From a virus (Duplodnaviria > Heunggongvirae > Uroviricota > Caudoviricetes): a DNA stretch of 19,601 bases. The notes beneath the pieces were generated by a model. It searched no databases and was not told the origin of the DNA. It worked only from the letters and a program-made list of their open reading frames with translations. Position numbers and translations under genes: made by a program. Positions within the stretch are counted from its first letter, which is position 1. Every line of letters begins with the position of its first letter. The stretch lies in IMG/VR virus record IMGVR_UViG_2529293139_000005. One strand, 5' to 3'. This document shows, piece by piece, positions 1,254-19,175 of this stretch.

Positions 1254-1472
1254 TCACAGTCCCCATTGTTTGTTCTTAAGTTCGATCTCCTCCTGGCAAC
1301 TCGCACAAGTCCGACAACCCTGAACAGCCAGGCGTCTTCGCTCATCTATCGGATCGCCACACTCACAACAATGAGTTGCGGATACAGTCTGGTAGTTCAG
1401 ACGACGCATTTTTATTGCTGTATTGCGCTGTAATTCTTCGATTTCTGATGCTGAATCAATGATGTCTGCCAT
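1254..1472 (-). CDS. TraR/DksA-family C4 zinc-finger protein (72 aa)
   Basis: MADIIDSASEIEELQRNTAIKMRRLNYQ...CCECGDPIDERRRLAVQGCRTCASC: CxxC...CxxC zinc ribbon preceded by a coiled region, as in phage TraR-like proteins. Confidence 0.7.
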   Translation of the reverse strand: MADIIDSASEIEELQRNTAIKMRRLNYQTVSATHCCECGDPIDERRRLAVQGCRTCASCQEEIELKNKQWGL

Positions 1473-1570
1473 CTTTCATTAATCCCTGAATTGTTGGTTA
1501 ATACGCTTGAGGGTAAATGCGAATAATAAAAAAGGAGCCTGTAGCTCCCTGATGATTTTGCTTTTCATGT

Positions 1571-1852
1571 TCACCGTTCCTTAAAGACGCCGTTCAACAT
1601 GCCGATCGCCAGGCTTAAATGAGTCGGTGTGAATCCCATCAGCGTTACCGTTTCGCGGTGCTTCTTTAGTACGCTACGGCAAATGTCATCGACGTTTTTA
1701 TCCGGAAACTGCTGTCTGGCTTTTTTGATTTCAGAATTAGCCTGACGGGCAATGCTGCGAAGGGCGTTTTCTTGCTGAGGTGTCATTGAACAAGCCCCAT
1801 GTCGGCAAGCATAAGCACACAGAATATGAAGCCCGCTGCCAGAAAAATGCAT
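1571..1852 (-). CDS. Hypothetical early-left protein; start uncertain (ATG 1852 giving 93 aa, or ATG 1786 giving 71 aa beginning MTPQQENALRSIARQ)
   Basis: ORF 1571..1852(-); both candidate ATGs sit in ATGA start/stop overlaps with upstream reading frames. Confidence 0.45.
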   Translation of the reverse strand: MHFSGSGLHILCAYACRHGACSMTPQQENALRSIARQANSEIKKARQQFPDKNVDDICRSVLKKHRETVTLMGFTPTHLSLAIGMLNGVFKER

Positions 1853-1862
1853 TCAGTGGTTG

Positions 1863-2054
1863 TCATACCTGGTCTCTCTCATCTGCTTCTGCTTTCGCCA
1901 CCATCATTTCCAGCTTTTGTGAAAGGGATGCGGCTAACGTGTGAAATTCTTCGTCTGTTTCTACTGGTATTGGCACAAACCTGACTCCAATTTGAGCGAG
2001 GCTATGTGCCATCTCGATACTCGTTCTTAACTCAACGGGAGATGCTTTGTGCAT
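1863..2054 (-). CDS. Hypothetical small early-left protein (63 aa)
   Basis: ORF 1863..2054(-) with GAGGGG about 5 nt upstream of the ATG; lies in the small-ORF cluster left of exo as in lambda. Confidence 0.45.
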   Translation of the reverse strand: MHKASPVELRTSIEMAHSLAQIGVRFVPIPVETDEEFHTLAASLSQKLEMMVAKAEADERDQV

Positions 2055-2215
2055 ACAGCCCCTCGTTTATTATTTATCTCCTCAGCCAGCCGCTGGGCTT
2101 TCAGTGGATTTTGGATAACAGAAAGGCCGGGAAATACCCAGCCTCGCTTTGTAACGGAGTAGACGAAAGTGATCGCGCCTACCCGGATATTATCGTGAGG
2201 ATGCGTCATCGCCAT
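2027..2215 (-). CDS. Hypothetical small protein (62 aa) immediately upstream of exo; overlaps neighbours
   Basis: ORF 2027..2215(-); overlaps exo start by 10 nt and the 1863..2054 ORF by 28 nt, so at most weakly supported. Confidence 0.3.
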
Positions 2216-2886
2216 TGCTCCCCAAATACAAAACCAATTTCAGCCAGTGCCTCGTCCATTTTTTCGATGAACTCCGGCACCATCTCGTCAAAACTCGCCA
2301 TGTACTTTTCATTCCGCTCAATCACGACATAATGCAGGCCTTCACGCTTCATGCGCGGGTCATAGTTGGCAAAGTACCAGGCATCTTTTCGCGTCACCCA
2401 CATGCTGTACTGCACCTGGGCCATGTAAGCCGATTTTATTGCCTCGAAACCACCGAGCCGGAATTTCATGAAATCCCGGGAGGTAAACGGGCATTTCAGT
2501 TCAAGGCCGTTGCCGTCACTGCATAAACCATCGGGAGAGCAGGCGGTGCGCATATTTTCGTCGCGATAGATGATCGGGGATTCAGTAATATTCACGCTGG
2601 AAGTGAATTCAAACAGGGTTCTGGCGTCGTTCTCGTACTGTTTTCCCCAGGCCAGCGCCTTAGCATTAACTTCCGGAGCCACACCGGTGCAAACCTCAGC
2701 CAGCAGGGTGTGGAAGTAGGACATTTTCATGTCAGGCCACTTCTTTCCTGAGCGGGGCTTTGCTATCACGTTGTGAACTTCTGAAGCGGTGATGACGCCG
2801 AGCCGTAATTTGTGCCATGCATCATCCCCCTGTTCGACAGCTCTCACGTCGATCCCGGTACGCTGCAGGATAATGTCCGGTGTCAT
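2206..2886 (-). CDS. exo: Lambda-type exonuclease (Red alpha, 226 aa)
   Basis: [40 protein letters not shown]... matches lambda Exo essentially along its whole length (from memory); ATGA overlap with bet stop. Confidence 0.95.
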
Positions 2887-3668
2887 GCAGCCACCTTCTG
2901 CTCAGAGGCTTTCTGTTTCAGGAATCCAAGAGCTTTCACTGCTTCGGCCTGTGTCAGTTCTGACGATGCGCGAATGTCGCGGCGAAATATCTGGGAACAG
3001 AGCGGCAATAAGTCGTCATCCCATGTTTTATCCAGGGCAATCAGCAGAGTGTTAATCTCCTGCATGGTTTCATCGTTAACCGGAGTGATGTCGCGTTCCG
3101 GCTGACGTTCTGCAGTGTATGCGGTATTTTCGACAATGCGCTCGGCTTCATCCTTGTCATAGATACCAGCAAATCCGAAGGCCAGACGGGCACACTGAAT
3201 CATGGCTTTATGACGTAACATCCGTTTGGGATGCGACTGCCACGGTCCCGTGATTTCTCTGCCTTCGCGGGTTTTGAATGGTTCGCGGCGACATTCATCC
3301 ATCCACTCGGTAACGCAGATCGGATGATTGCGGTCCTTGCGGTAAATCCGGCATGTACAGGATTCATTGTCCTGCTCAAAGTCCATGCCATCAAACTGCT
3401 GGTTTTCATTGATGATGCGGGACCAGCCATCAACGCCCACCACCGGAACGATGCCGTTCTGCTTATCAGGAAAGGCGTAAATTTCTTTCGTCCACGGATT
3501 AAGGCCGTACTGGTTGGCGACGATCAGCAATGCGATGAACTGCGCATCGCTGGCATCGCCTTTAAATGCCGTCTGGCGAAGAGTGGTGATCAGTTCCTGT
3601 GGGTCGACAGAATCCATGCCGACACGTTCAGCCAGCTTCCCTGCCAGCGTTGCGAGTGCTGTACTCAT
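2883..3668 (-). CDS. bet: Lambda-type single-strand annealing protein Bet (Red beta, 261 aa)
   Basis: [66 protein letters not shown]... matches lambda Bet from memory. Confidence 0.95.
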
Positions 3669-3673
3669 TCGTT

Positions 3674-3970
3674 TTATACCTCTGAATCAATATCAACCTG
3701 GTGGTGAGCAATGGTTTCAACCATGTACCGGATGTGTTCTGCCATGCGCTCCTGAAACTCAACATCGTCATCAAACGCACGGGTAATGGCTTTTTTGCTG
3801 GCCCCGTGGCGTTGCAAATGATCGATGCATAGCGATTCAAACAGGTGCTGGGGCAGGCCTTTTTCCATGTCGTCTGCCAGTTCTGCCTCTTTCTCTTCAC
3901 GGGCGATCTGCTGGTAGTGACGCGCCCAGCTCTGAGCCTCAAGACGATCCTGAATGTAATAAGCGTTCAT
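3674..3970 (-). CDS. gam: Gam, RecBCD inhibitor (98 aa, GamS-length form)
   Basis: [60 protein letters not shown]... matches lambda Gam from memory; 5-nt gap to bet start. Confidence 0.9.
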
Positions 3971-4046
3971 GGCTGAACTCCTGAAAATGGCTGTGAAAAT
4001 AGCGCCCGCGAAATGCCAGGCTGATTAGGAAAACAGGAAAGGGGGG

Positions 4047-4424
4047 TTAGTGATTCAGGCCGTTACCGCGTCCGTCGAGAAAAACTTCCACGAGCAAATC
4101 ACGGGTATAAGTGCGCTCGATGCCGCGATGCAGATAAAGCCGTCCGCGTAAATTAGCTGATGCAGTCCAGGTACCATCTTTGTGTTTGACCAGCATTCCT
4201 GGCATGACCGCACCTCGATTAACGGTCTGCGTTCCGTAATGTTGATGAACCATAAAAACTCCTGCCCGTAAGCTGGGCTGCTGAACATATAGAGACTTCT
4301 GCGCGTATTCAGGCGGTGGATGGCCGCCGGTTGTCATAACTAAGCCGCCTCGTTGAAGCGACTGAGGTATGAGGTGTTGAGTTGATTTCAGCTGGTCACA
4401 CCGACGTTCACGCGTCCGTTTCAC
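4047..4424 (-). CDS. Hypothetical early-left protein with Arg-rich N-terminus (possible N-like antiterminator, or a kil-position gene); start uncertain (TTG 4457, GTG 4424 or ATG 4337)
   Basis: ORF 4047..4457(-) begins at TTG. GTG at 4424 is preceded by GGGGAG at 8-nt spacing and would give MKRTRERRCDQLK, reminiscent of N-protein Arg-rich motifs; ATG 4337 has GAGG upstream. First gene downstream of the putative PL. Confidence 0.4.
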   Translation of the reverse strand: MKRTRERRCDQLKSTQHLIPQSLQRGGLVMTTGGHPPPEYAQKSLYVQQPSLRAGVFMVHQHYGTQTVNRGAVMPGMLVKHKDGTWTASANLRGRLYLHRGIERTYTRDLLVEVFLDGRGNGLNH

Positions 4425-4523
4425 CCCTCGCACTCCCCGGAGCCTGCCGAAATTCAAGCTGCGGATCTAAGCGGTCATCGCAACGGTGAATCAGGCGGTT
4501 GCCGTATCGTTGTGTTGTTGCGA

Positions 4524-4580
4524 CATGGTAATAATAGCTATTGCTATTGGTGGTATCAATACTTATTGCTATTGATTGAT
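4524..4580 (-). promoter_or_regulatory. Candidate PL promoter with operators (OL): minus-strand -35 TTGATA (plus 4554..4559), 17-bp spacer, -10 TATTAT (plus 4531..4536); TTGCTATT repeats
   Basis: Sigma70-like hexamers with 17-bp spacer read off the minus strand; 13-mer TTGCTATTGATTG at 4566..4578 is identical to 7216..7228 in the cI-cro intergenic region; palindrome AATAGCTATT at 4533..4542. Confidence 0.45.
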
Positions 4581-4699
4581 GTGTTTTGATATTAACTGTT
4601 TGATAGCAAAAAGAATTAATTTTGTGACTTGCATCGCATAGCGATAACTGAAGGGAGGTTGTGGTGGTTTTTCGAACGGTTTGTGTGATGAGGGGAGGG

Positions 4700-4730
4700 G
4701 ACAAAAGAAAACCCGGCACGGTGGCCGGGC
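4700..4730 (-). terminator. Rho-independent terminator ending the cI-kinase cassette transcript
   Basis: Minus strand reads CCCGGC-caccgt-GCCGGG followed by TTTTCTTTTGT; GC stem 4712..4717 / 4724..4729. Confidence 0.6.
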
Positions 4731-4894
4731 TAGATCTTAAAGTATTTATCTTTTAGAGATGTAGATGCAAAATTTTTTGCCTTTGAAAATTTTTTGTCAT
4801 CAGAAGAGCTTATGAACTCATCTTTTTTGTAGGGAACCGCTAATGCTGCATCACGTCTGCGAGGCAGCTTACTTACTTCCTCGCACTTTTTCAT
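4730..4894 (-). CDS. Small basic protein (54 aa, MKKCEEVSKLPRRRDAALAVPYKKDEFISSSDDKKFSKAKNFASTSLKDKYFKI); third gene of the kinase cassette; absent from the supplied ORF track
   Basis: Hand translation of the minus strand; ATG 4894..4892 lies 2 nt after the kinase TGA (4899..4897) with AAGGA 8 nt upstream; TAG stop overlaps the terminator stem. Confidence 0.4.
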   Translation of the reverse strand: MKKCEEVSKLPRRRDAALAVPYKKDEFISSSDDKKFSKAKNFASTSLKDKYFKI

Positions 4895-4896
4895 GA

Positions 4897-5943
4897 TCAG
4901 TTATCCTTTAATAACCTATACAGTTTTGTAGGGGTACATCCTGAGGATATTGTTAAGTTCGTAGCACGCCTTTTCCGCCCACCATCGTATAAACGAAAAC
5001 CAGTAGTAGACGAATTTTCTGCGTCAAAAACTATAGACAGTATAACGTCCCCAGACTTTTTTTGCCATTCATATGTGCCGTTAGTTGGTTTTGTCATCTG
5101 TAGACGCCAGTCAAGAACGCCATCACTTATAGCTGAGAGATCGTTTAGTACGTCTAGTACGGATTGATATCTTTCATTTGGATCTACATGAATGCATTTG
5201 TTTACTATTGTTATCAATTTTTTATGTATGTGGGAAGGATACTCTTTTAATGGATAGGAGCCATTAATTATCGACTCTCTGAGTTGTTCAATCGTTCTAA
5301 ATGCAGATCTTTCTCTTTCAAAATTATCATATCCAACACACATTCTATATATGGTTAATCCTGCCTGATATATGTCATATGTGAAATTATAATCATTTGT
5401 TGATAAAGAAAAATATTCCGGTGGCACATGAAAATGATATCCAAACTCAGGCGCAGCTCTCGATTCCTCATTGACTAACTGAGACAATCCAAAGTCAGAT
5501 AGCATGGCCTCATTTCTGTTTGATATCATGATGTTATTAGGTTTTATATCAAAATGCATAAGACCTTTTGAGTGTATATGATAAAGCCCACTTAAAAATT
5601 GAATAGAATACCGTATTATCTCCCTGCTCGTAAGATTAATCTTTTTTATTAATTGGTTTAGCGAACCATTATGATAAAATGGCATGGCTATATAGATATT
5701 GCTCTCACATTGAGCAGCATACTGAACTTGCACAATATTTGGATGTGCATGTTTATAGAGAAGCCTTGCTTCATTAAAGTAGTCGTCGTGGTTAGTGTTT
5801 TCTTTTTTTTCTATTTCTTTAATCACCAAGTCATGAGCTAGGTGTCTGTCATGAGCCAGATATACTTTTGAAAAACAACCCTGTTCTTCTAGATCACGAA
5901 TCCATTCGAATGCTACATCAGCTCTTTTGTATGGAGTCAGCAT
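4897..5943 (-). CDS. Hanks-type (eukaryotic-like) Ser/Thr protein kinase, 348 aa, with C-terminal extension of unknown function
   Basis: Kinase motifs in order: LVIKE (beta3 Lys), HFDIKPNN (catalytic loop, non-RD), SDFGLS (DFG), PPEY (APE-like); strong GGAGG RBS; AT-rich relative to neighbours. Confidence 0.85.
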   Translation of the reverse strand: MLTPYKRADVAFEWIRDLEEQGCFSKVYLAHDRHLAHDLVIKEIEKKENTNHDDYFNEARLLYKHAHPNIVQVQYAAQCESNIYIAMPFYHNGSLNQLIKKINLTSREIIRYSIQFLSGLYHIHSKGLMHFDIKPNNIMISNRNEAMLSDFGLSQLVNEESRAAPEFGYHFHVPPEYFSLSTNDYNFTYDIYQAGLTIYRMCVGYDNFERERSAFRTIEQLRESIINGSYPLKEYPSHIHKKLITIVNKCIHVDPNERYQSVLDVLNDLSAISDGVLDWRLQMTKPTNGTYEWQKKSGDVILSIVFDAENSSTTGFRLYDGGRKRRATNLTISSGCTPTKLYRLLKDN

Positions 5944-6398
5944 CCCCTTACCTCCGCAGATAGTGCAGCCAAAACAGCTTCATTTGTTTCAGTTGTAAAA
6001 CCAGAATTATCGATTCCATTTATATTACGGTGTGACTTCAATATTTCTTTATACTCGATCTCTGTTAGGTTCAATGATGACTTCATACCAGATTTTCTAA
6101 TGGTGTAATATCTTCTTACATCACTGCTTGAAAATGCTTCTTGAATAACAGCTTCTATATAAAGGCGGTCAATGCTAAGATTATCAGAGTTTGATTCAGT
6201 AACGCGTATAGCAGCTAATTCAACATTATATAAATTAAGAATGTCGAGGATGTTATTTCGCACATACTTTAATTTTTCTGGTGTGTCTAAGGTCGAAGGT
6301 ATTTTAATAACATCAACACATTTGAGTGCAGACTCATCAGTGCAATATACAACAAAAGATGTAACTTTGGGCGCCGCCCTAACACCTAGTATTCTCAT
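5937..6398 (-). CDS. Hypothetical protein (153 aa), first gene of the kinase cassette, translationally coupled to the kinase
   Basis: ORF 5937..6398(-); its TGA (5939..5937) lies 2 nt inside the kinase ATG (5943..5941); no recognisable domain; AT-rich. Confidence 0.65.
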   Translation of the reverse strand: MRILGVRAAPKVTSFVVYCTDESALKCVDVIKIPSTLDTPEKLKYVRNNILDILNLYNVELAAIRVTESNSDNLSIDRLYIEAVIQEAFSSSDVRRYYTIRKSGMKSSLNLTEIEYKEILKSHRNINGIDNSGFTTETNEAVLAALSAEVRGC

Positions 6399-6478: not shown

Positions 6479-7171
6479 TTATCCATGTTTCCTGTATGTT
6501 TGCGGCATGCTCCCAATAACTTTCCCGAAGATAAACACCCGGTTCATCTCGTCTTTCTCGATTGGGTCCCACGGTGAGTAGCTCTTGTTATCAGAGATAA
6601 CCAGCAGTTTATCCTTCATCATTTGCAGGCGCTTAACATGGGCTGTGTCGTCATACAGAAACGCATAGATACCATCACCGTCGAAAGATTTAACAGTGAT
6701 ATCAACGAACAGAAGATCACCTGGTTCGATCGTTCCTGACATGCTGTCACCGCGTACGTTAATGATGCGGATATTTTCTGCCTTCCTGCCATCGAACATG
6801 TGACGAGCATCGTCAAACGAGTACTCAACCGAGCGTAGAACTTCTACAAACTCACGGTTGATGACTCCCGGCCCGGCACTCACTTCTATATCAAGAACGT
6901 CAATCTTGAAGTATTTGGGATGGTTGGCAGCAGGCTTCCCTGATTGTTGACCGTCATTTCTCATCGGGCCTATGCCTGATGAGAGCCACTCTGTTCGAAC
7001 ACCCAATGCATTAGCTATTTCAACAATTTTTGTTGAGCCGCGTGCGTTGCCGCTTGTCAGTCTCCAGATTGTGGGTTGAGCTACGCCAGACGCCTTTGCA
7101 AGAGCGCCTTGAGACATTCCAGATTGTTCCATCGCTAGGTTTAAGCGATCAGCAAGAGTTTCTTTTTTCAT
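6479..7171 (-). CDS. cI: CI-type prophage repressor: N-terminal XRE-family HTH plus C-terminal LexA-like S24 autopeptidase domain (about 230 aa from Met at 7171)
   Basis: HTH MSQGALAKASGVAQPTIWRL; S24-like segment with RGDSMSG (Ser) and downstream VKRL (Lys); no SD before ATG 7171 (possibly leaderless like lambda cI); the ORF-track start at 7207 would fall inside the promoter. Confidence 0.85.
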   Translation of the reverse strand: MKKETLADRLNLAMEQSGMSQGALAKASGVAQPTIWRLTSGNARGSTKIVEIANALGVRTEWLSSGIGPMRNDGQQSGKPAANHPKYFKIDVLDIEVSAGPGVINREFVEVLRSVEYSFDDARHMFDGRKAENIRIINVRGDSMSGTIEPGDLLFVDITVKSFDGDGIYAFLYDDTAHVKRLQMMKDKLLVISDNKSYSPWDPIEKDEMNRVFIFGKVIGSMPQTYRKHG

Positions 7172-7180
7172 AAGTTTTAA

Positions 7181-7250
7181 TTTATACGCTTGCGTATTGA
7201 TGGTCAAAACACGTTTTGCTATTGATTGGGTTAATACGCATTGCTATTAT
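7181..7250. promoter_or_regulatory. Divergent PRM/PR promoter and operator (OR) region between cI and cro
   Basis: Plus-strand PR candidate: -35 TTGATT 7222..7227, 17-bp spacer, -10 TATTAT 7245..7250; minus-strand PRM candidate -10 TATAAA (plus 7181..7186); near-palindrome ATACGCTTGCGTAT; TTGCTATT at 7216 and 7241. Confidence 0.5.
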
Positions 7251-7281
7251 CCATTCATTGTAATACCAATAGGAATTGATA

Positions 7282-7509
7282 ATGACAAATCAAACCATTC
7301 AACTCGCAATCAGTATTACAGGTAGTCAAAAACGACTGGCAGATCTATGCGGTGTAGCCCAGCCCACTGTTTGGCGTTGGCTACACGGTGGCGGAATTGA
7401 TGCCCGCTATGTAATGAAAATTGTCTCAGCCACTGGTGGAAAGATTAAACCAGCAGATATTCGTCCCGACCTTGCACCATTGTTTAACGCGAGTAATTCT
7501 GCCGCCTAA
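7282..7509 (+). CDS. cro: Cro-like HTH regulator (75 aa from ATG 7282)
   Basis: MTNQTIQLAISITGSQKRLADLCGVAQPTVWRWLHGG with HTH; AGGAA RBS 7271..7275; divergent from cI. Confidence 0.8.
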   Translation: MTNQTIQLAISITGSQKRLADLCGVAQPTVWRWLHGGGIDARYVMKIVSATGGKIKPADIRPDLAPLFNASNSAA

Positions 7510-7539
7510 ACTGCGGCGTTAACTGATAAGGCAATGATT

Positions 7540-8079
7540 ATGCAACCACTTACATACCAACAGACTAGCGGATTTAGCCCGACTGCGGTGATAAATCGTT
7601 CTCAAATAAAACAGGTGCCAGGCCACGAAAAAATCCGTGATGCCGTTCGCGCCTGGTCGGCTGCAGATAATCAGGATGTTGTTGCCGCACTCATTGTGAA
7701 TGAGTATCGGGAGCAGGGCGGCGGCACCATCGATTTCCCTGATGATGTCAGCCGTGCACGCCAGAAGCTGTTCCGCTTCCTCGATAACAAATTCGATTCT
7801 GAAAAATACCGAAATAACGTGCGTGAACTGACCCCGGCAATTCTGGCGGTACTACCGCTGGAATATCGCGGCCACCTGGTTGAGCAGGATAGCTTCATGG
7901 CTCGGCTGGCTGAAATGGAAAAGGAACTCTGTGAGGCAAAGCAGGCGGTCATTCTCAACGCACCACGCCACCAGAAACTGAAGGAGATGAGTGAAGGCAT
8001 TGTGTCGATGTTTCGAGTGGACCCGGATCTGGCTGGTCCATTGATGGCGATGGTCACCACCATGCTGGGGGCAATATGA
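7540..8079 (+). CDS. YdaT-like protein in the cII position (about 180 aa)
   Basis: Sits immediately after cro where lambda has cII; segments EYREQGGG and LTPAILAVLPLEYRGHL resemble the YdaT family as I recall it; start 7534 or 7540. Confidence 0.55.
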   Translation: MQPLTYQQTSGFSPTAVINRSQIKQVPGHEKIRDAVRAWSAADNQDVVAALIVNEYREQGGGTIDFPDDVSRARQKLFRFLDNKFDSEKYRNNVRELTPAILAVLPLEYRGHLVEQDSFMARLAEMEKELCEAKQAVILNAPRHQKLKEMSEGIVSMFRVDPDLAGPLMAMVTTMLGAI

Positions 8080-9793: not shown

Positions 9794-10092
9794 CGGGCAA
9801 AGAGGCAATTATTCATTACCTGGGGACTCATAAGAAATTCTGTGCGCAGGACGTTGCCGCGGTAACAGGCGCAACGGTAACCAGCATAAATCAGGCTGCG
9901 GCTAAAATGGCACGGGCAGGTCTTCTGGTTATCGAAGGTAAGGTCTGGCGAACGGTGTATTACCGGTTTGCTACCAGAGAAGAACGGGAAGGAAAGGTGA
10001 GCACGAATCTGATTTTTAAGGAGTGTCGCCAGAGTGCCGCGATGAAACGGGTATTGAGGGTATATAAAAGAACATCAATGGGTACACAATGA
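9790..10092 (+). CDS. ren: Ren (100 aa)
   Basis: MTGKEAIIHYLGTHKKFCAQDVAAVTGATVTSINQAAAKMARAGLLVIEGKVWRTVYYRFATREEREGK matches lambda Ren from memory; ATGA overlap with P. Confidence 0.9.
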   Translation: MTGKEAIIHYLGTHKKFCAQDVAAVTGATVTSINQAAAKMARAGLLVIEGKVWRTVYYRFATREEREGKVSTNLIFKECRQSAAMKRVLRVYKRTSMGTQ

Positions 10093-10159
10093 TGAAACAG
10101 GTGAGTTGAGTTCAAACTGTAGTACAATTCTCTCCAGTTTGAACAGGAAAGAATATTCT

Positions 10160-10492
10160 ATGAACCCTTATATTTATCTTGGTGGTGCAATACTTGCAGA
10201 GGTCATTGGTACAACCTTAATGAAGTTTTCAGAAGGTTTTACACGGTTATGGCCATCTGTTGGTACAATTATTTGTTATTGTGCATCATTCTGGTTATTA
10301 GCTCAGACGCTGGCTTATATTCCTACAGGGATTGCTTATGCTATCTGGTCAGGAGTCGGTATTGTCCTGATTAGCTTACTGTCATGGGGACTTTTCGGCC
10401 AACGGCTGGACCTGCCAGCCATTATAGGCATGATGTTGATTTGTGCCGGTGTGTTGGTTATTAATTTATTGTCACGAAGCACACCACATTAA
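10160..10492 (+). CDS. emrE: Small multidrug resistance efflux transporter EmrE (110 aa)
   Basis: MNPYIYLGGAILAEVIGTTLMKFSEGFTRLWPSVGTIICYCASFWLLAQTLAYIPTGIAYAIWSGVGIVLISLLSWG... matches E. coli EmrE from memory; AGGAAAG RBS. Confidence 0.95.
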   Translation: MNPYIYLGGAILAEVIGTTLMKFSEGFTRLWPSVGTIICYCASFWLLAQTLAYIPTGIAYAIWSGVGIVLISLLSWGLFGQRLDLPAIIGMMLICAGVLVINLLSRSTPH

Positions 10493-10523
10493 AAATAATT
10501 TGTTTCTAAACGACTAAAATATG

Positions 10524-10565
10524 GAGGCTCTTATATTTATATGAGCCTCGTTTTATGCTTTTTGT
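10524..10565 (+). terminator. Rho-independent terminator after emrE
   Basis: GAGGCTC (10524..10530), 12-nt loop, GAGCCTC (10543..10549), then GTTTTATGCTTTTT. Confidence 0.6.
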
Positions 10566-10748
10566 TAATGTCTTTATTTTTTTATGTATTCTTTTGTGCT
10601 TTCAAGATTATGGCGTAAGAAAATTGCAATACGATTATTGTTGTATATTCAAGATAATGTGACCTTAATTGTCTTTTTAAATAAAAATTAAACAAAAATT
10701 ATATCCCACCACTAAGGTTTATAAAAGCATACGTTAGCAGGTGTCACC

Positions 10749-12275
10749 ATGAAAAAAGCCATAGCATATATGCGATTTTCATCACCAGGTCAGATGTCTG
10801 GCGACTCATTAAACCGACAGAGAAGACTTATTGCTGAATGGTTAAAGGTAAATAGTGATTATTATCTTGATACCATAACATATGAAGATTTAGGATTAAG
10901 TGCATTCAAAGGAAAGCATGCACAATCAGGAGCTTTTTCGGAATTTTTAGATGCTATAGAGCATGGTTATATATTGCCAGGAACTACATTGTTAGTTGAA
11001 AGTCTGGACAGACTTTCAAGAGAAAAAGTCGGTGAAGCGATTGAACGTCTGAAATTGATTTTGAATCACGGTATTGATGTTATAACTCTTTGCGACAATA
11101 CAGTCTATAATATTGACTCTTTGAATGAGCCATATTCATTAATAAAAGCCATACTTATAGCACAAAGGGCAAATGAAGAAAGCGAGATAAAGTCAAGTCG
11201 GGTTAAATTATCATGGAAGAAAAAACGGCAGGATGCACTGGAATCAGGTACGATTATGACGGCGTCTTGTCCGAGATGGCTCTCCTTAGATGACAAAAGA
11301 ACGGCTTTTGTTCCAGACCCCGACAGGGTGAAAACTATTGAGCTAATTTTTAAACTCAGGATGGAAAGGCGCTCATTGAATGCAATAGCCAAGTATTTAA
11401 ATGATCATGCTGTAAAGAATTTCTCAGGAAAAGAAAGTGCATGGGGACCTTCTGTAATTGAAAAATTATTAGCGAATAAAGCTCTGATAGGTATATGCGT
11501 ACCTTCATATCGTGCAAGAGGTAAAGGAATAAGTGAAATCGCTGGCTATTATCCCAGAGTCATATCAGATGATTTGTTTTACGCTGTACAGGAAATTCGG
11601 TTGGCACCTTTTGGTATTAGCAATAGTAGCAAAAATCCTATGTTGATAAATCTACTTCGAACAGTTATGAAGTGCGAGGCTTGTGGTAATACCATGATTG
11701 TTCATGCGGTATCTGGAAGTTTGCATGGCTATTATGTTTGTCCGATGAGAAGACTGCATCGATGTGACAGGCCATCAATAAAGAGAGATTTGGTTGATTA
11801 TAATATCATTAATGAGTTGCTTTTTAATTGTAGTAAAATCCAACCAGTTGAAAACAAGAAAGATGCTAATGAAACTTTAGAGTTGAAAATTATTGAGCTC
11901 CAGATGAAAATTAATAATTTAATTGCTGCATTATCTGTTGCGCCTGAAGTTACCGCTATAGCAGAAAAAATCAGAGTATTAGATAAGGAATTACGAAGGG
12001 CTTCTGTATCATTAAAAACTTTGAAGAGTAAAGCGGTGAGTTCACTTGGTGATTTTCATGCTATTGACTTAACCAGTAAAAATGGGCGAGAGCTATGTCG
12101 TACACTTGCCTATAAAACATTCGAAAAAATCATAATCAATACAGATAATAAAACCTGTGATATCTATTTTATGAATGGCATTGTTTTTAAACACTATCCT
12201 TTAATGAAAACAATATCCGCCCAGCAGGCGATAAGTACTCTCAAATATATGGTTGATGGTGAGGTTTATTTTTGA
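10749..12275 (+). CDS. ybcK: Large serine recombinase (508 aa), YbcK-like
   Basis: N-terminal resolvase-type catalytic region AIAYMRFSSPGQ (Ser), large central domain, Cys cluster CEACGN...CPMRRLHRC (zinc ribbon), coiled-coil C-terminus; AT-rich gene downstream of emrE as in DLP12. Confidence 0.85.
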   Translation: MKKAIAYMRFSSPGQMSGDSLNRQRRLIAEWLKVNSDYYLDTITYEDLGLSAFKGKHAQSGAFSEFLDAIEHGYILPGTTLLVESLDRLSREKVGEAIERLKLILNHGIDVITLCDNTVYNIDSLNEPYSLIKAILIAQRANEESEIKSSRVKLSWKKKRQDALESGTIMTASCPRWLSLDDKRTAFVPDPDRVKTIELIFKLRMERRSLNAIAKYLNDHAVKNFSGKESAWGPSVIEKLLANKALIGICVPSYRARGKGISEIAGYYPRVISDDLFYAVQEIRLAPFGISNSSKNPMLINLLRTVMKCEACGNTMIVHAVSGSLHGYYVCPMRRLHRCDRPSIKRDLVDYNIINELLFNCSKIQPVENKKDANETLELKIIELQMKINNLIAALSVAPEVTAIAEKIRVLDKELRRASVSLKTLKSKAVSSLGDFHAIDLTSKNGRELCRTLAYKTFEKIIINTDNKTCDIYFMNGIVFKHYPLMKTISAQQAISTLKYMVDGEVYF

Positions 12276-12386
12276 GTAATAATCACTTTTTCAACCGTGC
12301 TATAGTAAGAAAGTTAGGTAAGTACAATAAAATTATCTATCCTGAACGAAGCGTCCTGAGCTATGGTTTTACTATAGAGACTGCCA

Positions 12387-13528: not shown

Positions 13529-13715
13529 AACCTTTGATTTGCGATAATCAACTCGCCATAATCATGTCATCGGAGCCTGAACAACTCCGGTGACTTCTGC
13601 GCTAAACGGGGACGTTTATGCGCACACACAATCCAAACTCTCTTCTCCCTCCACAGATGCAGAAATGCACCTGCGATATATTGTATCCAGCGTTTGACCT
13701 CTGCGGAGGTGAAGC

Positions 13716-14171
13716 GTGAATCTCCCACAAGATGGCATCAAATTACATCGCGGTAACTTCACCGCTATCGGTCGGCAGATCCAGCCTTATCTGGAGGAGG
13801 GCAAATGCTTTCGCATGGTGCTTAAACCGTGGCGTGAGAAACGCAGTCTTTCCCAGAATGCACTCAGCCACATGTGGTACAGCGAAATCAGTGAATACCT
13901 CATCAGCAGGGGTAAAACGTTCGCTACTCCAGCTTGGGTAAAAGATGCTCTCAAACACACATATCTCGGTTATGAAACCAAAGACCTGGTTGATGTCGTA
14001 ACCGGTGATATCACCACTATCCAGTCGTTACGCCATACCTCCGATCTTGATACCGGAGAGATGTATGTCTTCCTGTGTAAGGTTGAAGCCTGGGCGGTGA
14101 ATATTGGCTGCCACCTGACTATTCCGCAGAGCTGCGAGTTCCAGCAGCTCCGTGACAAGCAGGAGGCGTAA
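13716..14171 (+). CDS. ybcN: YbcN-like nin-region protein (151 aa), GTG start
   Basis: GGAGG RBS 13705..13709 before GTG 13716; [57 protein letters not shown]... matches my recollection of DLP12 YbcN. Confidence 0.75.
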
Positions 14172-14341
14172 TGGCTACACCGCTTATTCGTGTCATGAAC
14201 GGACACATCTACAGAGTACCAAATCGTCGTAAGCGTAAACCGGAGCTGAAACCTTCCGAAATACCAACACTGCTCGGATATACCGCCAGCCTGGTTGATA
14301 AAAAATGGTTGCGACTGGCAGCAAGGAGGAATCATGGCTGA
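14171..14341 (+). CDS. ninE: NinE-like small protein (56 aa); absent from the supplied ORF track
   Basis: Hand translation [56 protein letters not shown]; AGGAGG RBS 14161..14166; TAATG overlap with ybcN; overlaps ybcO start. Confidence 0.7.
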   Translation: MATPLIRVMNGHIYRVPNRRKRKPELKPSEIPTLLGYTASLVDKKWLRLAARRNHG

Positions 14342-14624
14342 TTTGAGAAAAGCAGCGCGTAGTCGGGAATGCCAGGTAAGAATCCCTGGCGTATGTAATG
14401 GTAACCCTGAAACGTCTGTACTGGCACATATCCGGCTGACTGGATTGTGCGGCACCGGTACCAAACCGCCAGACCTGATTGCCACCATTGCATGTTCTGC
14501 CTGCCACGACGAAATCGACCGCCGCACACATTTTGTCGATGCTGCATATGCAAAAGAATGCGCGCTGGAAGGTATGGCGAGAACACAGGTTATCTGGCTG
14601 AAAGAGGGGGTTATTAAGGCGTGA
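14334..14624 (+). CDS. ybcO: YbcO-like nin-region protein (96 aa), Cys/His-rich
   Basis: [67 protein letters not shown]; AAGGAGG RBS 14323..14329. Confidence 0.85.
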
Positions 14625-14983
14625 ATACCTACAGCATCACATTACCCTGGCCTCCGAGCAATAATCGCTATTACCGCCATAATCGCGGGCGCACGCACGT
14701 CAGCGCAGAGGGGCAGGCATACCGCGATAACGTCGCCCGAATCATTAAAAACGCAATGCTGGATATCGGCTTGGCTATGCCTGTGAAAATCCGCATTGAG
14801 TGCCACATGCCGGATCGCCGTCGCCGTGACCTGGATAATCTGCAAAAAGCCGCTTTTGACGCACTCACTAAAGCAGGTTTCTGGCTGGATGATGCTCAGG
14901 TCGTTGATTACCGCGTTGTGAAGATGCCTGTTACCAAAGGTGGGAGGCTGGAACTGACCATCACCGAAATGGGGAATGAATGA
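14621..14983 (+). CDS. rusA: Holliday-junction resolvase RusA (120 aa)
   Basis: [100 protein letters not shown] matches E. coli RusA from memory. Confidence 0.95.
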
Positions 14984-15120
14984 TGTTTGAGTTTTATATG
15001 GCAGAACGTCTTCGCCACCGCTGGGGGCGTCTGCGCTTATATCGTTTCCCCGGTTCTGTTTTGACCGATTACCGAATACTGAAGAATTACGCCAAAACCC
15101 TGACAGGAGCAGGAGTATGA
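14980..15120 (+). CDS. ylcG: YlcG-like small protein (46 aa); absent from the supplied ORF track
   Basis: Hand translation [46 protein letters not shown]; ATG overlaps the rusA TGA. Confidence 0.6.
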
Positions 15121-15205
15121 AGTCAGAGATAACAATCAACTAATACTGTTTCGTTGATTTTTGCTTGTAATTGGCGTTCTGGTCTGATTTTTGTGGAGTA
15201 AGTTG

Positions 15206-15505
15206 ATGCGTGATATTCAGATGGTTCTTGAGCGTTGGGGAGCGTGGGCGGCTAATAATCATGAAGATGTGACCTGGTCGTCCATTGCCGCCGGTTTTAA
15301 GGGATTAATTACTTCAAAAGTAAAATCTCGCCCGCAATGTTGTGACGATGACGCGATGATCATTTGCGGGTGCATGGCCCGTCTGAAAAAGAACAACAGC
15401 GATTTGCACGATTTATTAGTAGATTATTATGTAGTCGGTATGACATTCATGTCACTGGCAGGTAAGCATTGCTGCTCTGATGGTTATATCGGGAAAAGGT
15501 TATAG
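15206..15505 (+). CDS. quuD: Late antiterminator Q (QuuD/phage-82 type), closed after 99 codons by in-frame TAG; frame stays open to TAA 15587..15589
   Basis: GGAG RBS 15195..15198; [99 protein letters not shown] then TAG 15503..15505, followed in frame by KAEGIIEGMLMALDIRLEMDIVVNNSN. Confidence 0.8.
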
Positions 15506-15589
15506 AAGGCTGAGGGCATAATTGAAGGGATGTTAATGGCATTAGATATCCGGTTAGAGATGGATATCGTTGTTAATAACTCTAATTAA

Positions 15590-15760
15590 TATGCCAATTG
15601 TTTATTAAAAATGGGGCGTTGAGACGCCCCCAAAAATAAAGGGTAATATATAACAGAAGGTTTATATAGTTAGAAGCAAGGTTGTGCTTCTAAAGGAAGT
15701 GGCTTGAGGGAGCCACTTATATGTTGGGGAGGCAACGCCTCCCGCAACATATCTTTTTCG
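15590..15760 (+). promoter_or_regulatory. Putative late promoter / Q-utilisation region with hairpins and a terminator-like element (hairpin 15721..15750 followed by T-run)
   Basis: Directly after Q as in lambdoid phages; hairpins GGGGCG-ttgaga-CGCCCC and ATGTTGGGGAGGC-aac-GCCTCCCGCAACAT followed by ATCTTTTT; promoter hexamers not assigned. Confidence 0.4.
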
Positions 15761-15768
15761 TAATCAGA

Positions 15769-16866
15769 TTAGAACTGGTAAACCAGACCTACAGCAACGA
15801 TGTCATCAGTGCTTACACTGAGTGCTTTAGTGAAGTCATTTTTGTCAAGCAGGTTGATTTTGTAATCAACGAAAGTAGACATATTTTTGTTGAAGTAATA
15901 GGTTGCACCTACATCAACATATTTGACTAAGTCCTGATCGCCCCATACTCCAAGATCCTTACCTTTAGATTGCAGGTAAGCAACGGACGGACGCAGACCG
16001 AAATCGAACTGATATTGTGCAACAGCTTCGAAGTTTTGGGCTTTATTAGCAACGAAGTGATCAGCAAATACAGTCATATTCTGGGTTTCAGAATAGGTAG
16101 TGGCCAGGTAAATGTTGTTAGCGTCATATTTCAGACCTGCGGCCCAAACTTCTGCATTTTTACCGGAAGCAAATACTTCAGGAAGAACTTTCCCTGCATT
16201 AACTTGAGTGTCGGTACGATCAGATTTCGCATAAGTTGCACCGATACCGAATCCTTCGTATTCATAGGTAGCAGAGAAACCGAAGCCATCACCGTTACCT
16301 TCAGTGTAGTTATCGAAATCGCTACGATCGTTTTTGCCTTGGTACTGAGCAGCAAAATTCAGACCATCAACCAGACCAAAGAAGTCGTTGTTACGATAGG
16401 TTGCAACACCTGTGGTGCGACCAGTCATGAATACATCTGTTTGGGTCCAGGTATCGCCACCGAATTCTGGCAGAACGTCGGTCCATGCACCAATATCGTA
16501 TGCTACACCGTAGTTACGGCCATAATCGATGGAGCCGTAGTCACCGAATTTCAGGCCAGCGAAGGCAAGACGGGTTTTATCTTTGGAGGAACCTTGAGAT
16601 TCAGCGCGGTTGCCTTTGAATTCATATTCCCACTGACCGAAACCAGTCAGTTGATCGTTGATTTGGGTTTCACCTTTGAAGCCAAGACGGGCATAAGTAG
16701 TATCACCATCATCTGCATCATTAGAGGAGAAGTAGTGCTTAGCATTAACTTTCCCGTACAGATCCAGCTTGTTACTGTCTTTATTATAAATTTCAGCTGC
16801 CTGAGCAGACATCGCCATCAGTACTGATGCAGCTACAGCAGAAATTGCCACTGTTAATTTTTTCAT
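15769..16866 (-). CDS. nmpC: Outer-membrane general porin NmpC/OmpC family (365 aa precursor from [23 protein letters not shown])
   Basis: Signal peptide then [24 protein letters not shown]..., C-terminal VGLVYQF typical of enterobacterial porins; the ORF-track start at 16926 is upstream of the signal-peptide Met. Confidence 0.9.
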
Positions 16867-17292
16867 CGTGAGCCCTTTTTTTGAACTATTATTAAAAAAT
16901 GATGTCACTGCGCGATAAATATTCATCTAATCAATGTGATTATTTCAAGATGTAAGTTTTGGTTTCTCATTTGATTTGTGAAGTAGATCTCTATTTTTAT
17001 CTGAACTTTTTCTATCGAATCCTATTTATGGCTCTTATTTGAACAAAAATAAACCTATTAGCTAATTTATATTAATGGCTGTTATTTATGGGGGTTCTAT
17101 AATTCGGCAGTTTAATTTAAATCAACTAAAAATAACGTCTGAAATTATTTATTGGTTATTTGTTGAGGTTTTCTTATGTATTTGTGGTGGTGTTTTGAAC
17201 ACTCGGTAGCATTCTCATAAATATCATTCAGTGGTTTACGTACGTAAAAAATTGGTTATGCTGTTAAGAGTGGTTACTTCGTCACACAGCTT

Positions 17293-17325
17293 AAACCCGC
17301 CGTCGAGCGGGTTTTTCCATTTTTT
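17293..17325 (+). terminator. Rho-independent terminator upstream of the lysis cassette
   Basis: AAACCCGC-cgtcga-GCGGGTTT followed by TTCCATTTTTT on the plus strand. Confidence 0.5.
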
Positions 17326-17437
17326 GAGTCTCGATATTAGCTGATAACCCAATACCTGAGTTATTCACTGACTCCGAGTCTGTTACGTTTCGTAGTATTC
17401 CCTCAATTTACACCCGCTTTGTCTGCGAGGTGGGGTT

Positions 17438-17653
17438 ATGAAATCCATGGATAAGTTAACAACGGGTGTCGCCTATGGCACCTCAGCAGGTAGTGCCGGG
17501 TACTGGTTTTTACAGCTGCTAGATAAAGTCACGCCCTCACAGTGGGCGGCAATTGGAGTGCTGGGTAGCCTGGTATTTGGCCTGCTGACGTACCTGACAA
17601 ACCTTTATTTCAAGATTAAAGAAGATAAGCGCAAGGCTGCGAGAGGTGAATAA
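17438..17653 (+). CDS. essD: Class II holin (pinholin, phage-21 S type), 71 aa with dual-start motif MKSM
   Basis: [71 protein letters not shown]; two hydrophobic segments and charged C-terminus. Confidence 0.9.
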
Positions 17654-18150
17654 TGCCTCCATCATTACGAAAAGCCGTTGCTGCTGCTATTGGTGGCGGA
17701 GCAATTGCTATAGCATCAGTGTTAATCACTGGCCCAAGTGGTAACGATGGTCTGGAAGGTGTCAGCTACATACCATACAAAGATATTGTTGGTGTATGGA
17801 CTGTATGTCACGGGCATACAGGAAAAGACATCATGCTCGGTAAAACGTATACCAAAGCAGAATGCAAAGCCCTCCTGAATAAAGACCTTGCCACGGTCGC
17901 CAGACAAATTAACCCGTACATAAAAGTTGATATACCGGAAACAACGCGCGGCGCTCTTTACTTGTTCGTTTACAACGTGGGCGCTGGCAATTTCAGAACA
18001 TCGACGCTTCTTCGCAAAATAAACCAGGGCGATATCAAAGGCGCATGTGATCAGCTACGTCGCTGGACATATGCTGGCGGTAAGCAATGGAAAGGTCTCA
18101 TGACTCGTCGTGAGATTGAGCGTGAAATCTGTTTGTGGGGTCAGCAATGA
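17653..18150 (+). CDS. rrrD: Phage lysozyme (endolysin) with N-terminal signal-anchor-release type segment, 165 aa
   Basis: N-terminal Gly/Ala-rich weakly hydrophobic segment [20 protein letters not shown] followed by a lysozyme-like domain; start overlaps holin stop. Confidence 0.9.
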
Positions 18151-18608
18151 ACAGATTAACCTCGATTATCTCCGCTCTGTTCATCTGCATCATCGTCTGC
18201 CTGTCATGGGCTGTTAATCATTACCGTGATAACGCCATTACCTACAAAGCCCAGCGCGACAAAAATGCCAGAGAACTGAAGCTGGCGAACGTGGCAATTA
18301 CTGACATGCAGATGCGTCAGCGTGATGTTGCTGCGCTCGATGCAAAATACACGAAGGAGTTAGCTGATGCGAAAGCTGAAAATGATGCTCTGCGTGATGA
18401 TGTTGCCGCTGGTCGTCGTCGGTTGCACATCAAAGCAGTCTGTCAGTCAGTGCGTGAAGCCACCACCGCCTCCGGCGTGGATAATGCAGCCTCCCCCCGA
18501 CTGGCAGACACCGCTGAACGGGATTATTTCACCCTCAGAGAGAGGCTGATCACTATGCAAAAACAACTGGAAGGAACCCAGAAGTATATTAATGAGCAGT
18601 GCAGATAG
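18147..18608 (+). CDS. rzpD: Spanin inner-membrane subunit Rz (153 aa from [14 protein letters not shown])
   Basis: N-terminal TM segment then coiled-coil-rich periplasmic domain; ATGA overlap with endolysin stop. Confidence 0.85.
18367..18549 (+). CDS. rzoD: Spanin outer-membrane lipoprotein Rz1 (60 aa) embedded in Rz in the +1 frame
   Basis: [60 protein letters not shown]: lipobox VVVGC and proline-rich body; matches lambda Rz1 from memory. Confidence 0.8.
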
Positions 18609-18639
18609 AGCTGCCCATATCGATGGGCAACTCATGCAA

Positions 18640-18933
18640 TTATTGTGAGCAATACACACGCGCTTCCAGCGGAGTATAAATGCCTAAAGTAATAAAACCG
18701 AGCAATCCATTTACGAATGTTTGCTGGGTTTCTGTTTTAACAACATTTTCTGCGCCGCCACAAATTTTGGCTGCATCAACAGTTTTCTCCTGTCCAATTC
18801 CCGAAACGAAGAAGTGATGGGTGATGGTTTCCTTTGGTGTTACTGCTGTCGGTTTGTTTCCAACAGTAAACGTCTGTTGAGCACATCCTGTAATAAGCAT
18901 TGCCAGAGCGGCAGAAAACAACATTTTTTTCAT
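18640..18933 (-). CDS. borD: Bor lipoprotein (serum-resistance protein), 97 aa from MKKMLFSAALAMLITGC
   Basis: Lipobox LITGC and AQQTFTVGNKPTAVTPKETITHHFFVSGIGQEKTVDAAKICGGAENVVKTETQQTFVNGLLGFITLGIYTPLEARVYCSQ matches lambda Bor from memory. Confidence 0.9.
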   Translation of the reverse strand: MKKMLFSAALAMLITGCAQQTFTVGNKPTAVTPKETITHHFFVSGIGQEKTVDAAKICGGAENVVKTETQQTFVNGLLGFITLGIYTPLEARVYCSQ

Positions 18934-19175
18934 CTTATTATCCTGCATTGTTAAAAACGGCAGAATCCTATGTGACAACAATTAAACGATAGTTAAATGG
19001 ATTGATGAAAATTAAAACTATATAGGTGTACGCTCAGACTATTGGAGGAAGTTGGGGACACTCAGAATCCTGTGGAATGAAATAAACCGGTCTATCCGTC
19101 TATTACCCTTTTAGCTGCGCTGTATCGTCGCCGTATTCCCGCATTAACCATGACCGTAGCCCGACGGGGAATTCC

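Follow-up and report, generated by a model that had tools for sequence, protein, structure and literature searches.

The window analysed here is a 19,601-nt stretch of caudoviricete DNA (IMG/VR virus record IMGVR_UViG_2529293139_000005; Duplodnaviria, Heunggongvirae, Uroviricota), and this report concerns the leader of its early-left operon, which is transcribed on the minus strand from the leftward promoter (PL) towards the recombination gene gam. PL is followed by an untranslated leader, which contains a conserved structured RNA termed element X, a second hairpin (hairpin H) and a conserved 24-mer, and then by a gene of the kil family (Table 1). An initial annotation of this DNA stated that the open reading frame (ORF) 4047-4457 is the sole gene between PL and gam, and the ORF listing confirmed it as the only frame in this interval (136 aa from a TTG start). 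Element X, the main subject of this study, is a portable cassette whose place is taken by putL or by nutL-N in other phages.

The structure of X is defined by a gapless alignment of 13 distinct sequences over 99 columns. It starts about 45 nt past the deduced transcription start and comprises two hairpins and three invariant motifs, namely, GACCGCUUAGA, GAGUGCGAG and GUGACCAGCUG. In the stems 96.9% of the cells are paired, compared with 17-45% when the partners are slid, and four pairs are changed on both sides. The double substitutions of hairpin 1 are seen in AGCUUG/CAGGCU versus CACUUG/CAGGUG (A-U to C-G, G-C to A-U), and hairpin 2 occurs as ACGGACG/CGUCGGU versus ACGGGC/GCCCGU and GCGGACG/CGUUGGC, with an exchange of A-U for G-C at two positions. 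The first two motifs can pair with each other (CGCUU with GAGYG), and a U-to-C change in two of the compared loci (L181, L183) turns a G-U into a G-C pair, as read from the folds. Since independent lineages are few, there is moderate support for the view that the two hairpins have been kept by compensatory change. The window-type leaders alone, which are 96-98% identical, vary too little for an analysis of covariation and show only transitions compatible with G-U pairs. The covariance model R2 recovered a single copy of X in the window, at full length and with 123.4 bits.

The leader is conserved from approximately its first nucleotide onward behind at least three PL/operator types (27 unique IMG/VR variants of three immunity types were aligned). 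It was matched in 2231 of 5426 complete Escherichia coli genomes (~40%); nearly all of these matches span X, and most of the matching genomes show a mosaic joint at query position 78 (window 4523). E. coli K-12 lacks the leader, the region having been lost from its DLP12 prophage. Among GenBank phages X is present only in 16 window-type genomes, where it is either unannotated or buried in an over-long “Kil” or “hypothetical” coding sequence (CDS). The distribution beyond the window type was established by nhmmer with the first ~150 nt of the leader, followed by a pattern scan that excluded the window type. The nhmmer search over all fetched loci returned one new type, a partial homologue in the IMG/VR contig L113. 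This contig combines a phi80/HK639-type PL and leader start (...CCATCGAAACGAAACATCGACAGCTGAGCGAAGTTAGCCAGCGGCGAAGTGGAG) with an HK639-type continuation (TTACCAGCAGCTCTTTGCGAGGGGCTGACGG...), and between these flanks HK639 carries its putL core and L113 a ~100-nt relative of window 4479-4381. The same exchange is documented by HK639 and L183, whose common 5' flank (...GCGGCGAAGTGGAG) and common 3' flank (TTTACCAGCAGCTCTTTGCGAGGGGCTGACGG..., extending through the first gene) enclose the putL core in the former and X in the latter. X was found behind a phi80/HK639-type PL in 17 IMG/VR loci with several immunity types, including that of phi80 itself, and the copies in this different phage backbone exhibit ~80% identity and sharp cassette edges. 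A divergent X in the GC-rich phage L151 has kept both motifs and both hairpins. Searches for further divergent copies yielded none in the metagenome pattern scan and, apart from L151, only chance matches in the IMG/VR scan with the central motif. In total, X is intact behind at least five upstream contexts and before three downstream contexts.

The nature of the slot that X occupies is illustrated by the 127 loci with a phi80-type leader start, 13 of which contain X, 32 put and 37 a boxA-type nut (pattern match). The remaining 45 have other occupants, and most of the examples listed among them show, by eye, a boxA-like TGCTCATTAA or TGCTTATTTAACAA followed by a hairpin; in phi80 the slot holds a boxA-type nutL plus N. 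Because put or a boxA-type nut is found in this slot besides X, all identifiable alternative occupants appear to be antitermination signals. The X-bearing loci themselves harbor neither put (covariance model R1) nor N or Nun (tblastn). The genes downstream of X vary by locus (HNH endonuclease, TerB-like protein, unknown), and outside the window lineage they are followed by one to four strong intrinsic terminators, which precede hairpin H, kil, gam and recT/bet. HK639 shows the same layout, and its slot occupant is labelled as a putL-like antiterminator RNA in GenBank.

None of the known antitermination devices was detected in the window. Profile comparison of the 125-136-aa product with Pfam, PHROGs and NCBIfam, a check proposed by the initial annotation, retrieved no N relative for the 136-aa ORF or its first 68 residues; tblastn of lambda N and phi80 N against the window gave a best E of 0.24, and HK022 Nun gave nothing. 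Matches to boxA with at most one mismatch number 14 in the window, compared with 16.2 expected by chance, none of them lies in the PL or the rightward (PR) leader, and a boxA/boxB nut site is missing from the window. The earlier impression of an ORF unlike lambda N and of a leader devoid of convincing boxA/boxB elements was thus correct. Model R1 was trained on eight put RNAs (HK022 putL and putR, HK639, phiEt88, UPF_BP1, CobraSix, S9-5 and PdC23) and returned positive controls at 53-101 bits, including putR copies outside the training set; its best match in the window reaches 9 bits (E = 0.42) and lies outside the leader. R2 detected no X in put phages, phi80, HK225, lambda, Rac or the kil loci of other genera. 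A nut- or put-like duplicate shared by the PL leader and the rightward transcript was not found (local alignment 23 versus 22.9 +/- 2.5 for shuffles). Rfam reported no family at gathering score in the whole window and only chance-level matches at E up to 10 in 3950-4760, a result that says little because the put family itself is absent from Rfam. The window showed no similarity to Rac KilS or to the “M3-like RNA” of HK639. The latter is annotated in GenBank after cII, where HK639 lacks a putR (L189 1911-1970, corresponding to HK639 37910-37969), and it is unrelated to X.

The protein encoded downstream of X is, to judge from its homologues, Kil with a start at ATG 4253, and the 136-aa frame merely happens to run on upstream. 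PHROG 294 (Kil) matches residues 60-136 (E = 2.6e-38), and positions 1-70 of the NCBIfam profile NF008465 (KilR) align with residues 69-136, i.e., profile position 1 corresponds to M69 encoded by ATG 4253. The score of 60.6 bits is below the curated cut-off of 92, and the window protein is therefore best assigned to a sister subfamily rather than to KilR proper. BLASTP with Rac KilR (E = 9e-13, 36% identity) places residue 1 of the 68-aa form on residue 1 of KilR, and in a genome that does not differ from the window throughout this region (100% identity) PGAP/RefSeq annotates precisely this 207-nt CDS (WP_000233576.1) and leaves the leader unannotated. Orthologues with 79-87% identity from Citrobacter, Silvania, Enterobacter, Kluyvera and Pseudocitrobacter begin with MVHQHYGT (or MIHQHYGT) after a GGAG-type Shine-Dalgarno sequence of their own, and their DNA further upstream is unrelated to the window.

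The frame upstream of M69 is, by comparison, poorly kept. We surveyed 47 copies of the same leader from the window, GenBank phages and IMG/VR contigs: 18 of them have TAG instead of the codon CAG at 4364-4362, which lies at the base of hairpin H, and insertions between the Arg-rich codons and kil comprise 5 nt in three copies and 1 nt in one. In L113-type copies of X the long frame reads GTG TAA, and the first 68 residues of the 136-aa ORF match no family in Pfam, PHROGs or NCBIfam. The family start, the PGAP annotation, the orthologues, the in-frame TAG and the indels are the reasons for concluding that the long protein is not a conserved entity. Over-long kil genes are found in some GenBank records, e.g., that of phage Perceval (420 nt, 139 aa). 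The initial annotation had drawn attention to an Arg-rich segment (KRTRERRCDQLK) that is included when the ORF is read from TTG 4457 or from GTG 4433 or 4424. It is present as letters but not conserved as a peptide. All three start codons are located inside X (TTG 4457 in hairpin 1, GTG 4433 in the central motif), and the Arg-rich codons 4421-4386 are nothing but the nucleotides of hairpin 2 and of the 3' motif read as protein.

The second structured element of the leader is hairpin H. Its 28 distinct variants are paired in 96.8% of the cells, compared with 23-54% after sliding, and compensatory changes affect seven of the eleven pairs. The segment 4372-4293 is homologous to segments of phi80, HK639 and HK225. 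The phi80 equivalent closely follows N and the terminator tL1A and lies where the tL1 region begins as mapped by experiment, that of HK639 adjoins annotated terminators, and that of HK225 lies upstream of kil. The conserved 24-mer (exact pattern ATGACAAYCGGCGGCCATCCACCG) is present in at least 120 IMG/VR loci, and the T-run of an intrinsic terminator directly precedes the H module in 71 of 119 other loci. Hairpin H and the 24-mer (window 4314-4366; L003 3001-3052, L004 3001-3058, L005 3001-3061) represent a widely conserved module that heads the early-left genes of many lambdoid phages, usually right after a tL1-type terminator and in L030 and L033 after putL.

In many phages the 24-mer opens an upstream ORF (uORF; MTTGGHPPP...EVLY*) of 16-24 codons, and in further lineages a different frame runs through the conserved bases downstream of it. 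The uORF contains a polyproline motif of the stall type, and its end ...EVLY* is retained in about 45 loci (among L021-L140) although the central part varies in length. In the window the uORF and kil share one continuous frame of 96 aa. A kil start at ATG 4337 was considered and rejected: the in-frame fusion is confined to the window lineage, and a 2-nt deletion in L062 breaks it. The initial annotation had named such a start, with loss of the Arg-rich segment, as the finding that would speak against its N-like protein; the evidence favours ATG 4253 instead, and the segment is lost with either start. In L093 the kil ATG is replaced by ATT. Candidate roles of the H module are a processing or stability element, a part of a Rho-dependent tL1, or control of the uORF.

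The transcription signals upstream of the leader agree with their earlier description. In the promoter scan no other sigma-70-like site of the region scored better than the proposed minus-strand PL (10 of 12), whose TTGATA (4559-4554) and TATTAT (4536-4531) are 17 bp apart. The motifs and the identical 13-mer said to be shared by the left operator (OL) and the cI-cro region were recovered as exact k-mers: TTGCTATT occurs at 4541 and 4566 in OL and at 7216 and 7241 in the right operator (OR), with a spacing of 25 bp at both, and TTGCTATTGATTG at 4566-4578 and 7216-7228; identity between the blocks 4525-4573 and 7200-7248 amounts to 73%. The operator motif of the window (ATTGCTATT) and its promoter (TTGATA-17-TATTAT) were also observed upstream of kil in L008 and L011. 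These two and the loci L013 and L014, which together come from Citrobacter, Kluyvera and a metagenome-assembled genome labelled Atopobium, have a different, unannotated kil leader; it is ~190 nt long and contains a CGCCAGCCUGGCG hairpin as well as a long-range stem (GUGAGCUUCGCGGUGGUG...CACCACCAGCGAAGUUCAC).

Table 1. Features of the early-left operon and its surroundings in the window.
Feature	Position	Strand	Evidence or remarks
Untranslated kil leader, ~271 nt	4254..4524	minus	+1 at ~4524, deduced from the position of the -10 box
Element X, conserved 99-nt structured leader RNA	4381..4479	minus	alignment, pair counts, covariance model R2
X 5' motif GACCGCUUAGA	4476-4466	minus	
X hairpin 1	4464-4437	minus	arms 4464-4455 and 4446-4437
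X central motif GAGUGCGAG	4435-4427	minus	
X hairpin 2	4419-4400	minus	
X 3' motif GUGACCAGCUG	4399-4389	minus	
Hairpin H	4340..4366	minus	core stem 4363-4343, apical UUC-AAC-GAG
Conserved 24-mer ATGACAACCGGCGGCCATCCACCG	4314..4337	minus	begins with ATG 4337
kil, 68-aa protein of the FtsZ-inhibitor family (KilR / phi80 Kil type)	4047..4253	minus	Shine-Dalgarno GGAG 4262-4259
PL promoter and OL operators	4525..4611	minus	promoter scan, repeats shared with OR
Operator-like 16-mer AATAGCTATTGCTATT	4533-4548		
Operator-like 16-mer AATACTTATTGCTATT	4558-4573		
gam, first gene of the lambda-type red module	3674..3970	minus	Pfam Gam, E = 3.4e-65; blastn versus lambda
Terminator-like hairpin just past exo	2123..2145	minus	terminator scan; in the lambda-identical homology block
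Strong intrinsic terminator, 5' of dksA-like gene, xis and int	1532..1550	minus	terminator scans
Intrinsic terminator closing the cI-distal operon	4710..4731	minus	terminator scan; 8-bp stem, 6 GC pairs, T-run
cI	6479-7207	minus	
cro/YdaS	7276-7509		
YdaT-type cII-like gene	7534-8079		

The slot shared with putL and nut, the absence of N, Nun and put from the X-bearing loci and the terminators located downstream are the reasons to propose X as an antitermination element. We see about an even chance that X is a put-like, cis-acting, protein-free antiterminator RNA of a new sequence class. X would be transcribed as the first part of the PL transcript and act on it in cis, and its RNA, like put, would enable RNA polymerase to pass downstream terminators with no need for a phage N protein. 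The expected targets in phi80/HK639-type relatives are the intrinsic terminators, one to four in number, that lie between X on one side and kil, gam and recT on the other. In the window lineage X is joined straight to hairpin H and kil without a terminator, and the targets would therefore lie further down the operon: candidates are the lambda-type terminator 2145-2123, which presumably occupies the position of lambda tL3, the terminator 1550-1532 before xis and int, and any Rho-dependent sites. The fuller claim, to which we give slightly less than an even chance, is that X constitutes an unrecognised class of cis-acting processive antiterminators, unrelated to put, swapped with putL and nutL-N, and carried in the leader of ~40% of complete E. 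coli genomes including DLP12-type phages (the K-12 relic has lost X).

Several observations weigh against a function of X in antitermination. The case appears to be a positional one, and the covariation of X stems from about three lineages and only four pairs. The folding energy of X and of the whole leader is no better than that of shuffled sequences (z = +0.1 to -0.7). The window lineage has no intrinsic terminator between X and kil-gam-bet-exo, and X is therefore not obviously needed there; the tL1-type terminator before hairpin H is likewise absent from this lineage, which fits plain N-independence as well. Unlike in HK022, there is no second X in the right operon, the next R2 match in the window amounting to 11.6 bits. 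A Rho/NusG-dependent terminator (tybcK) has been described upstream of ybcK in DLP12 (PMC4150792), and the emrE-ybcK intergenic region of the window (10493-10748) belongs to a block that is 97% identical to DLP12. Without a right-operon copy of X, PR transcription would thus stay unprotected despite the tybcK-type region.

The chief alternative is that the operon is plainly N-independent and involves no antitermination, with X, hairpin H and the uORF as ordinary elements of the 5'-untranslated region (5'-UTR). These would adjust the expression of the toxic kil and the adjacent genes by way of mRNA stability, control of translation, attenuation by Rho or a leader-derived small RNA. We consider this explanation possible but less likely than not, and a fair one for kil-gam-bet-exo in the window lineage. 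The leader is free of intrinsic terminators, in other genera kil comes right after a PL-like promoter, behind leaders that are short and unrelated and without an N gene, and the stretch 4406-4366 is rut-like in being rich in C and poor in G (C/G ratio up to 3.75). Rac kil is held silent by Rho/NusG, and the long 5'-UTR of Rac kilR yields the Hfq-associated small RNA KilS (PMC8175672). This scenario leaves unexplained why X sits in the exact putL/nutL slot between identical flanks and why phi80/HK639-type phages with X, which lack N and put, have one to four intrinsic terminators between X and their kil, gam and rec genes; moreover, the genes after X are unrelated from locus to locus, so that X is not tied to kil. 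An N-independent early-left operon had been one of the two options of the initial annotation. It holds insofar as an N protein and a nut site are missing, but it overlooks the conserved structured RNA cassette in the slot of nutL-N and putL, so that antitermination by RNA may remain.

A second alternative, which we regard as improbable, is that X is a nut-like site recruiting a trans-acting antiterminator other than N, of phage or host origin and encoded elsewhere. The slot is common to boxA/boxB nut sites, and the invariant, apparently single-stranded motifs GACCGCUUAGA, GAGUGCGAG and GUGACCAGCUG could bind a protein. However, X contains no boxA, no gene is conserved beside it across the loci, and the window and its annotated relatives 4A7 and Perceval offer no candidate except Q. 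It is very unlikely that the part of the leader preceding hairpin H has no function and is a mere spacer or relic, conserved through recent divergence only: the high identity of the window-type copies says little by itself and the folding energy is unexceptional, but the occurrence of X in another backbone and in a GC-rich phage, its compensatory changes and its sharp boundaries speak against this view. Finally, a divergent antiterminator of the N kind that is translated from TTG 4457 or a GTG and binds RNA through its Arg-rich N-terminus is hardly credible, since the open frame with its KRTRERRCDQLK segment and a GGAG 7 nt upstream of GTG 4424 (read from the sequence) are outweighed by the Kil homology from M69, the 68-aa CDS of PGAP, the orthologues that start there without an extension, the frame broken by TAG and indels in many relatives, the coincidence of the same nucleotides with a covarying RNA hairpin that reads GTG TAA in the L113 type, the unmatched N-terminal 68 residues, and the lack of N-family matches and boxA/boxB.

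The surrounding sequence identifies the window as a DLP12-type lambdoid prophage. Three blocks (9879-12314, 13533-15835 and 15827-18987) share 95.5-97.5% identity with renD-emrE-ybcK, ybcN-quuD and nmpC-borD, respectively, of the DLP12 prophage in E. coli K-12, whose intD/xisD is matched by the left end of the window, and the nearest isolated phages belong to the Bievrevirus group (4A7, 4C10, Perceval and the PhiR series). Window 1277-4053 corresponds to the red module of lambda, orf61 through gam (lambda 30418-33193, 97% identity in blastn). This homology ends four bases past the stop codon (4047-4049) of the KilR-type kil, and the lambda block kil-cIII-ea10-ral-sieB-N-nutL-PL has therefore been exchanged in one piece for a segment with PL, X, hairpin H and a KilR-type kil.

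The immunity region belongs to the Rac/YdaS-YdaT type. The cI-distal operon comprises cI, a 153-aa ORF, a Ser/Thr kinase and a 54-aa ORF, and its terminator (4731-4710) shields PL and kil from read-through of PRM transcription. The stretch 4730-6398, in the rex-like place between cI and PL, contains the 153-aa ORF (PHROG 3875, labelled RuvC-like), the kinase, which is of the eukaryotic type (Pkinase, E = 1e-46), and the Lys/Arg-rich 54-aa ORF (PHROG 4063) in front of this terminator. This cassette looks like an exclusion or defence module expressed in the lysogen.

On the right side, the tybcK-like region is part of the early operon of a phage without N, put and a second X. The Q gene (15206-15589, a quuD homologue) encodes a protein 94.5% identical to Q of Perceval and has a premature TAG at 15503-15505 (codon 100 of 127), a codon that reads CAG in both DLP12 and Perceval; the prophage is probably defective for late gene expression. 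The integrase gene (1-729, an intD homologue with 99.8% DNA identity) shows TAA at 1-3 in place of TCA (Ser243) in DLP12, which cuts Int to 242 of 387 aa, although the site at the extreme edge of the window calls for caution. The porin gene nmpC (15769-16926; 385 aa, Porin_1, E = 5e-156) is whole in the window, whereas it is interrupted by IS5 in DLP12 of K-12.

In phages, processive antitermination mediated by RNA without a protein is known from essentially one family, put of HK022 and HK639. If X is an antiterminator, a second, unrelated RNA would do the job of put, implying that this solution evolved more than once, and X would offer a new handle on the reprogramming of RNA polymerase by nascent RNA. 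It would also explain how recombination and excision genes behind terminators are expressed in the common N-less prophages of the DLP12/Bievrevirus type. Even if X is not an antiterminator, the analysis corrects a recurrent over-long annotation of Kil and describes, in X and hairpin H, two covarying RNA elements that had not been annotated.

A comparison with known systems places these elements as follows. The 68-aa Kil of the window resembles Rac KilR and phi80 Kil in its size, its membership of PHROG 294 and its position as an early-left gene just upstream of gam or the rec genes, and by family it is predicted to inhibit FtsZ; it is unrelated to the 47-aa Kil of lambda, whose locus it takes over. 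Rac KilS, a functional RNA derived from the leader of kilR, compares with the window leader by its position. It shows no sequence similarity and ends in an intrinsic terminator, which the window leader lacks. The N-nutL system of lambda and phi80 occupies the same slot between PL and the early-left genes, and phi80 additionally shares the H module and a kil homologue with the window, but the window is devoid of an N gene, a protein with an Arg-rich motif, boxA and boxB. The closest parallel is put of HK022 and HK639, which causes terminator read-through in cis and is blocked by mutations in the zinc-binding domain of the beta' subunit (rpoC; e.g., Y75N). X differs from put in sequence and covariance model (R1 at most 9 bits in the window and no match in the X loci), exceeds it in length by about 25 nt, contains a G-rich linker of 17 nt in which invariant motifs lie, and lacks a right-operon copy. 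The two have in common a length of 75-100 nt, two stem-loops and a location in the first ~150 nt transcribed from PL in lambdoid phages without N; the HK639 putL core and X replace each other between identical flanks, and both are followed by terminators that have to be passed.

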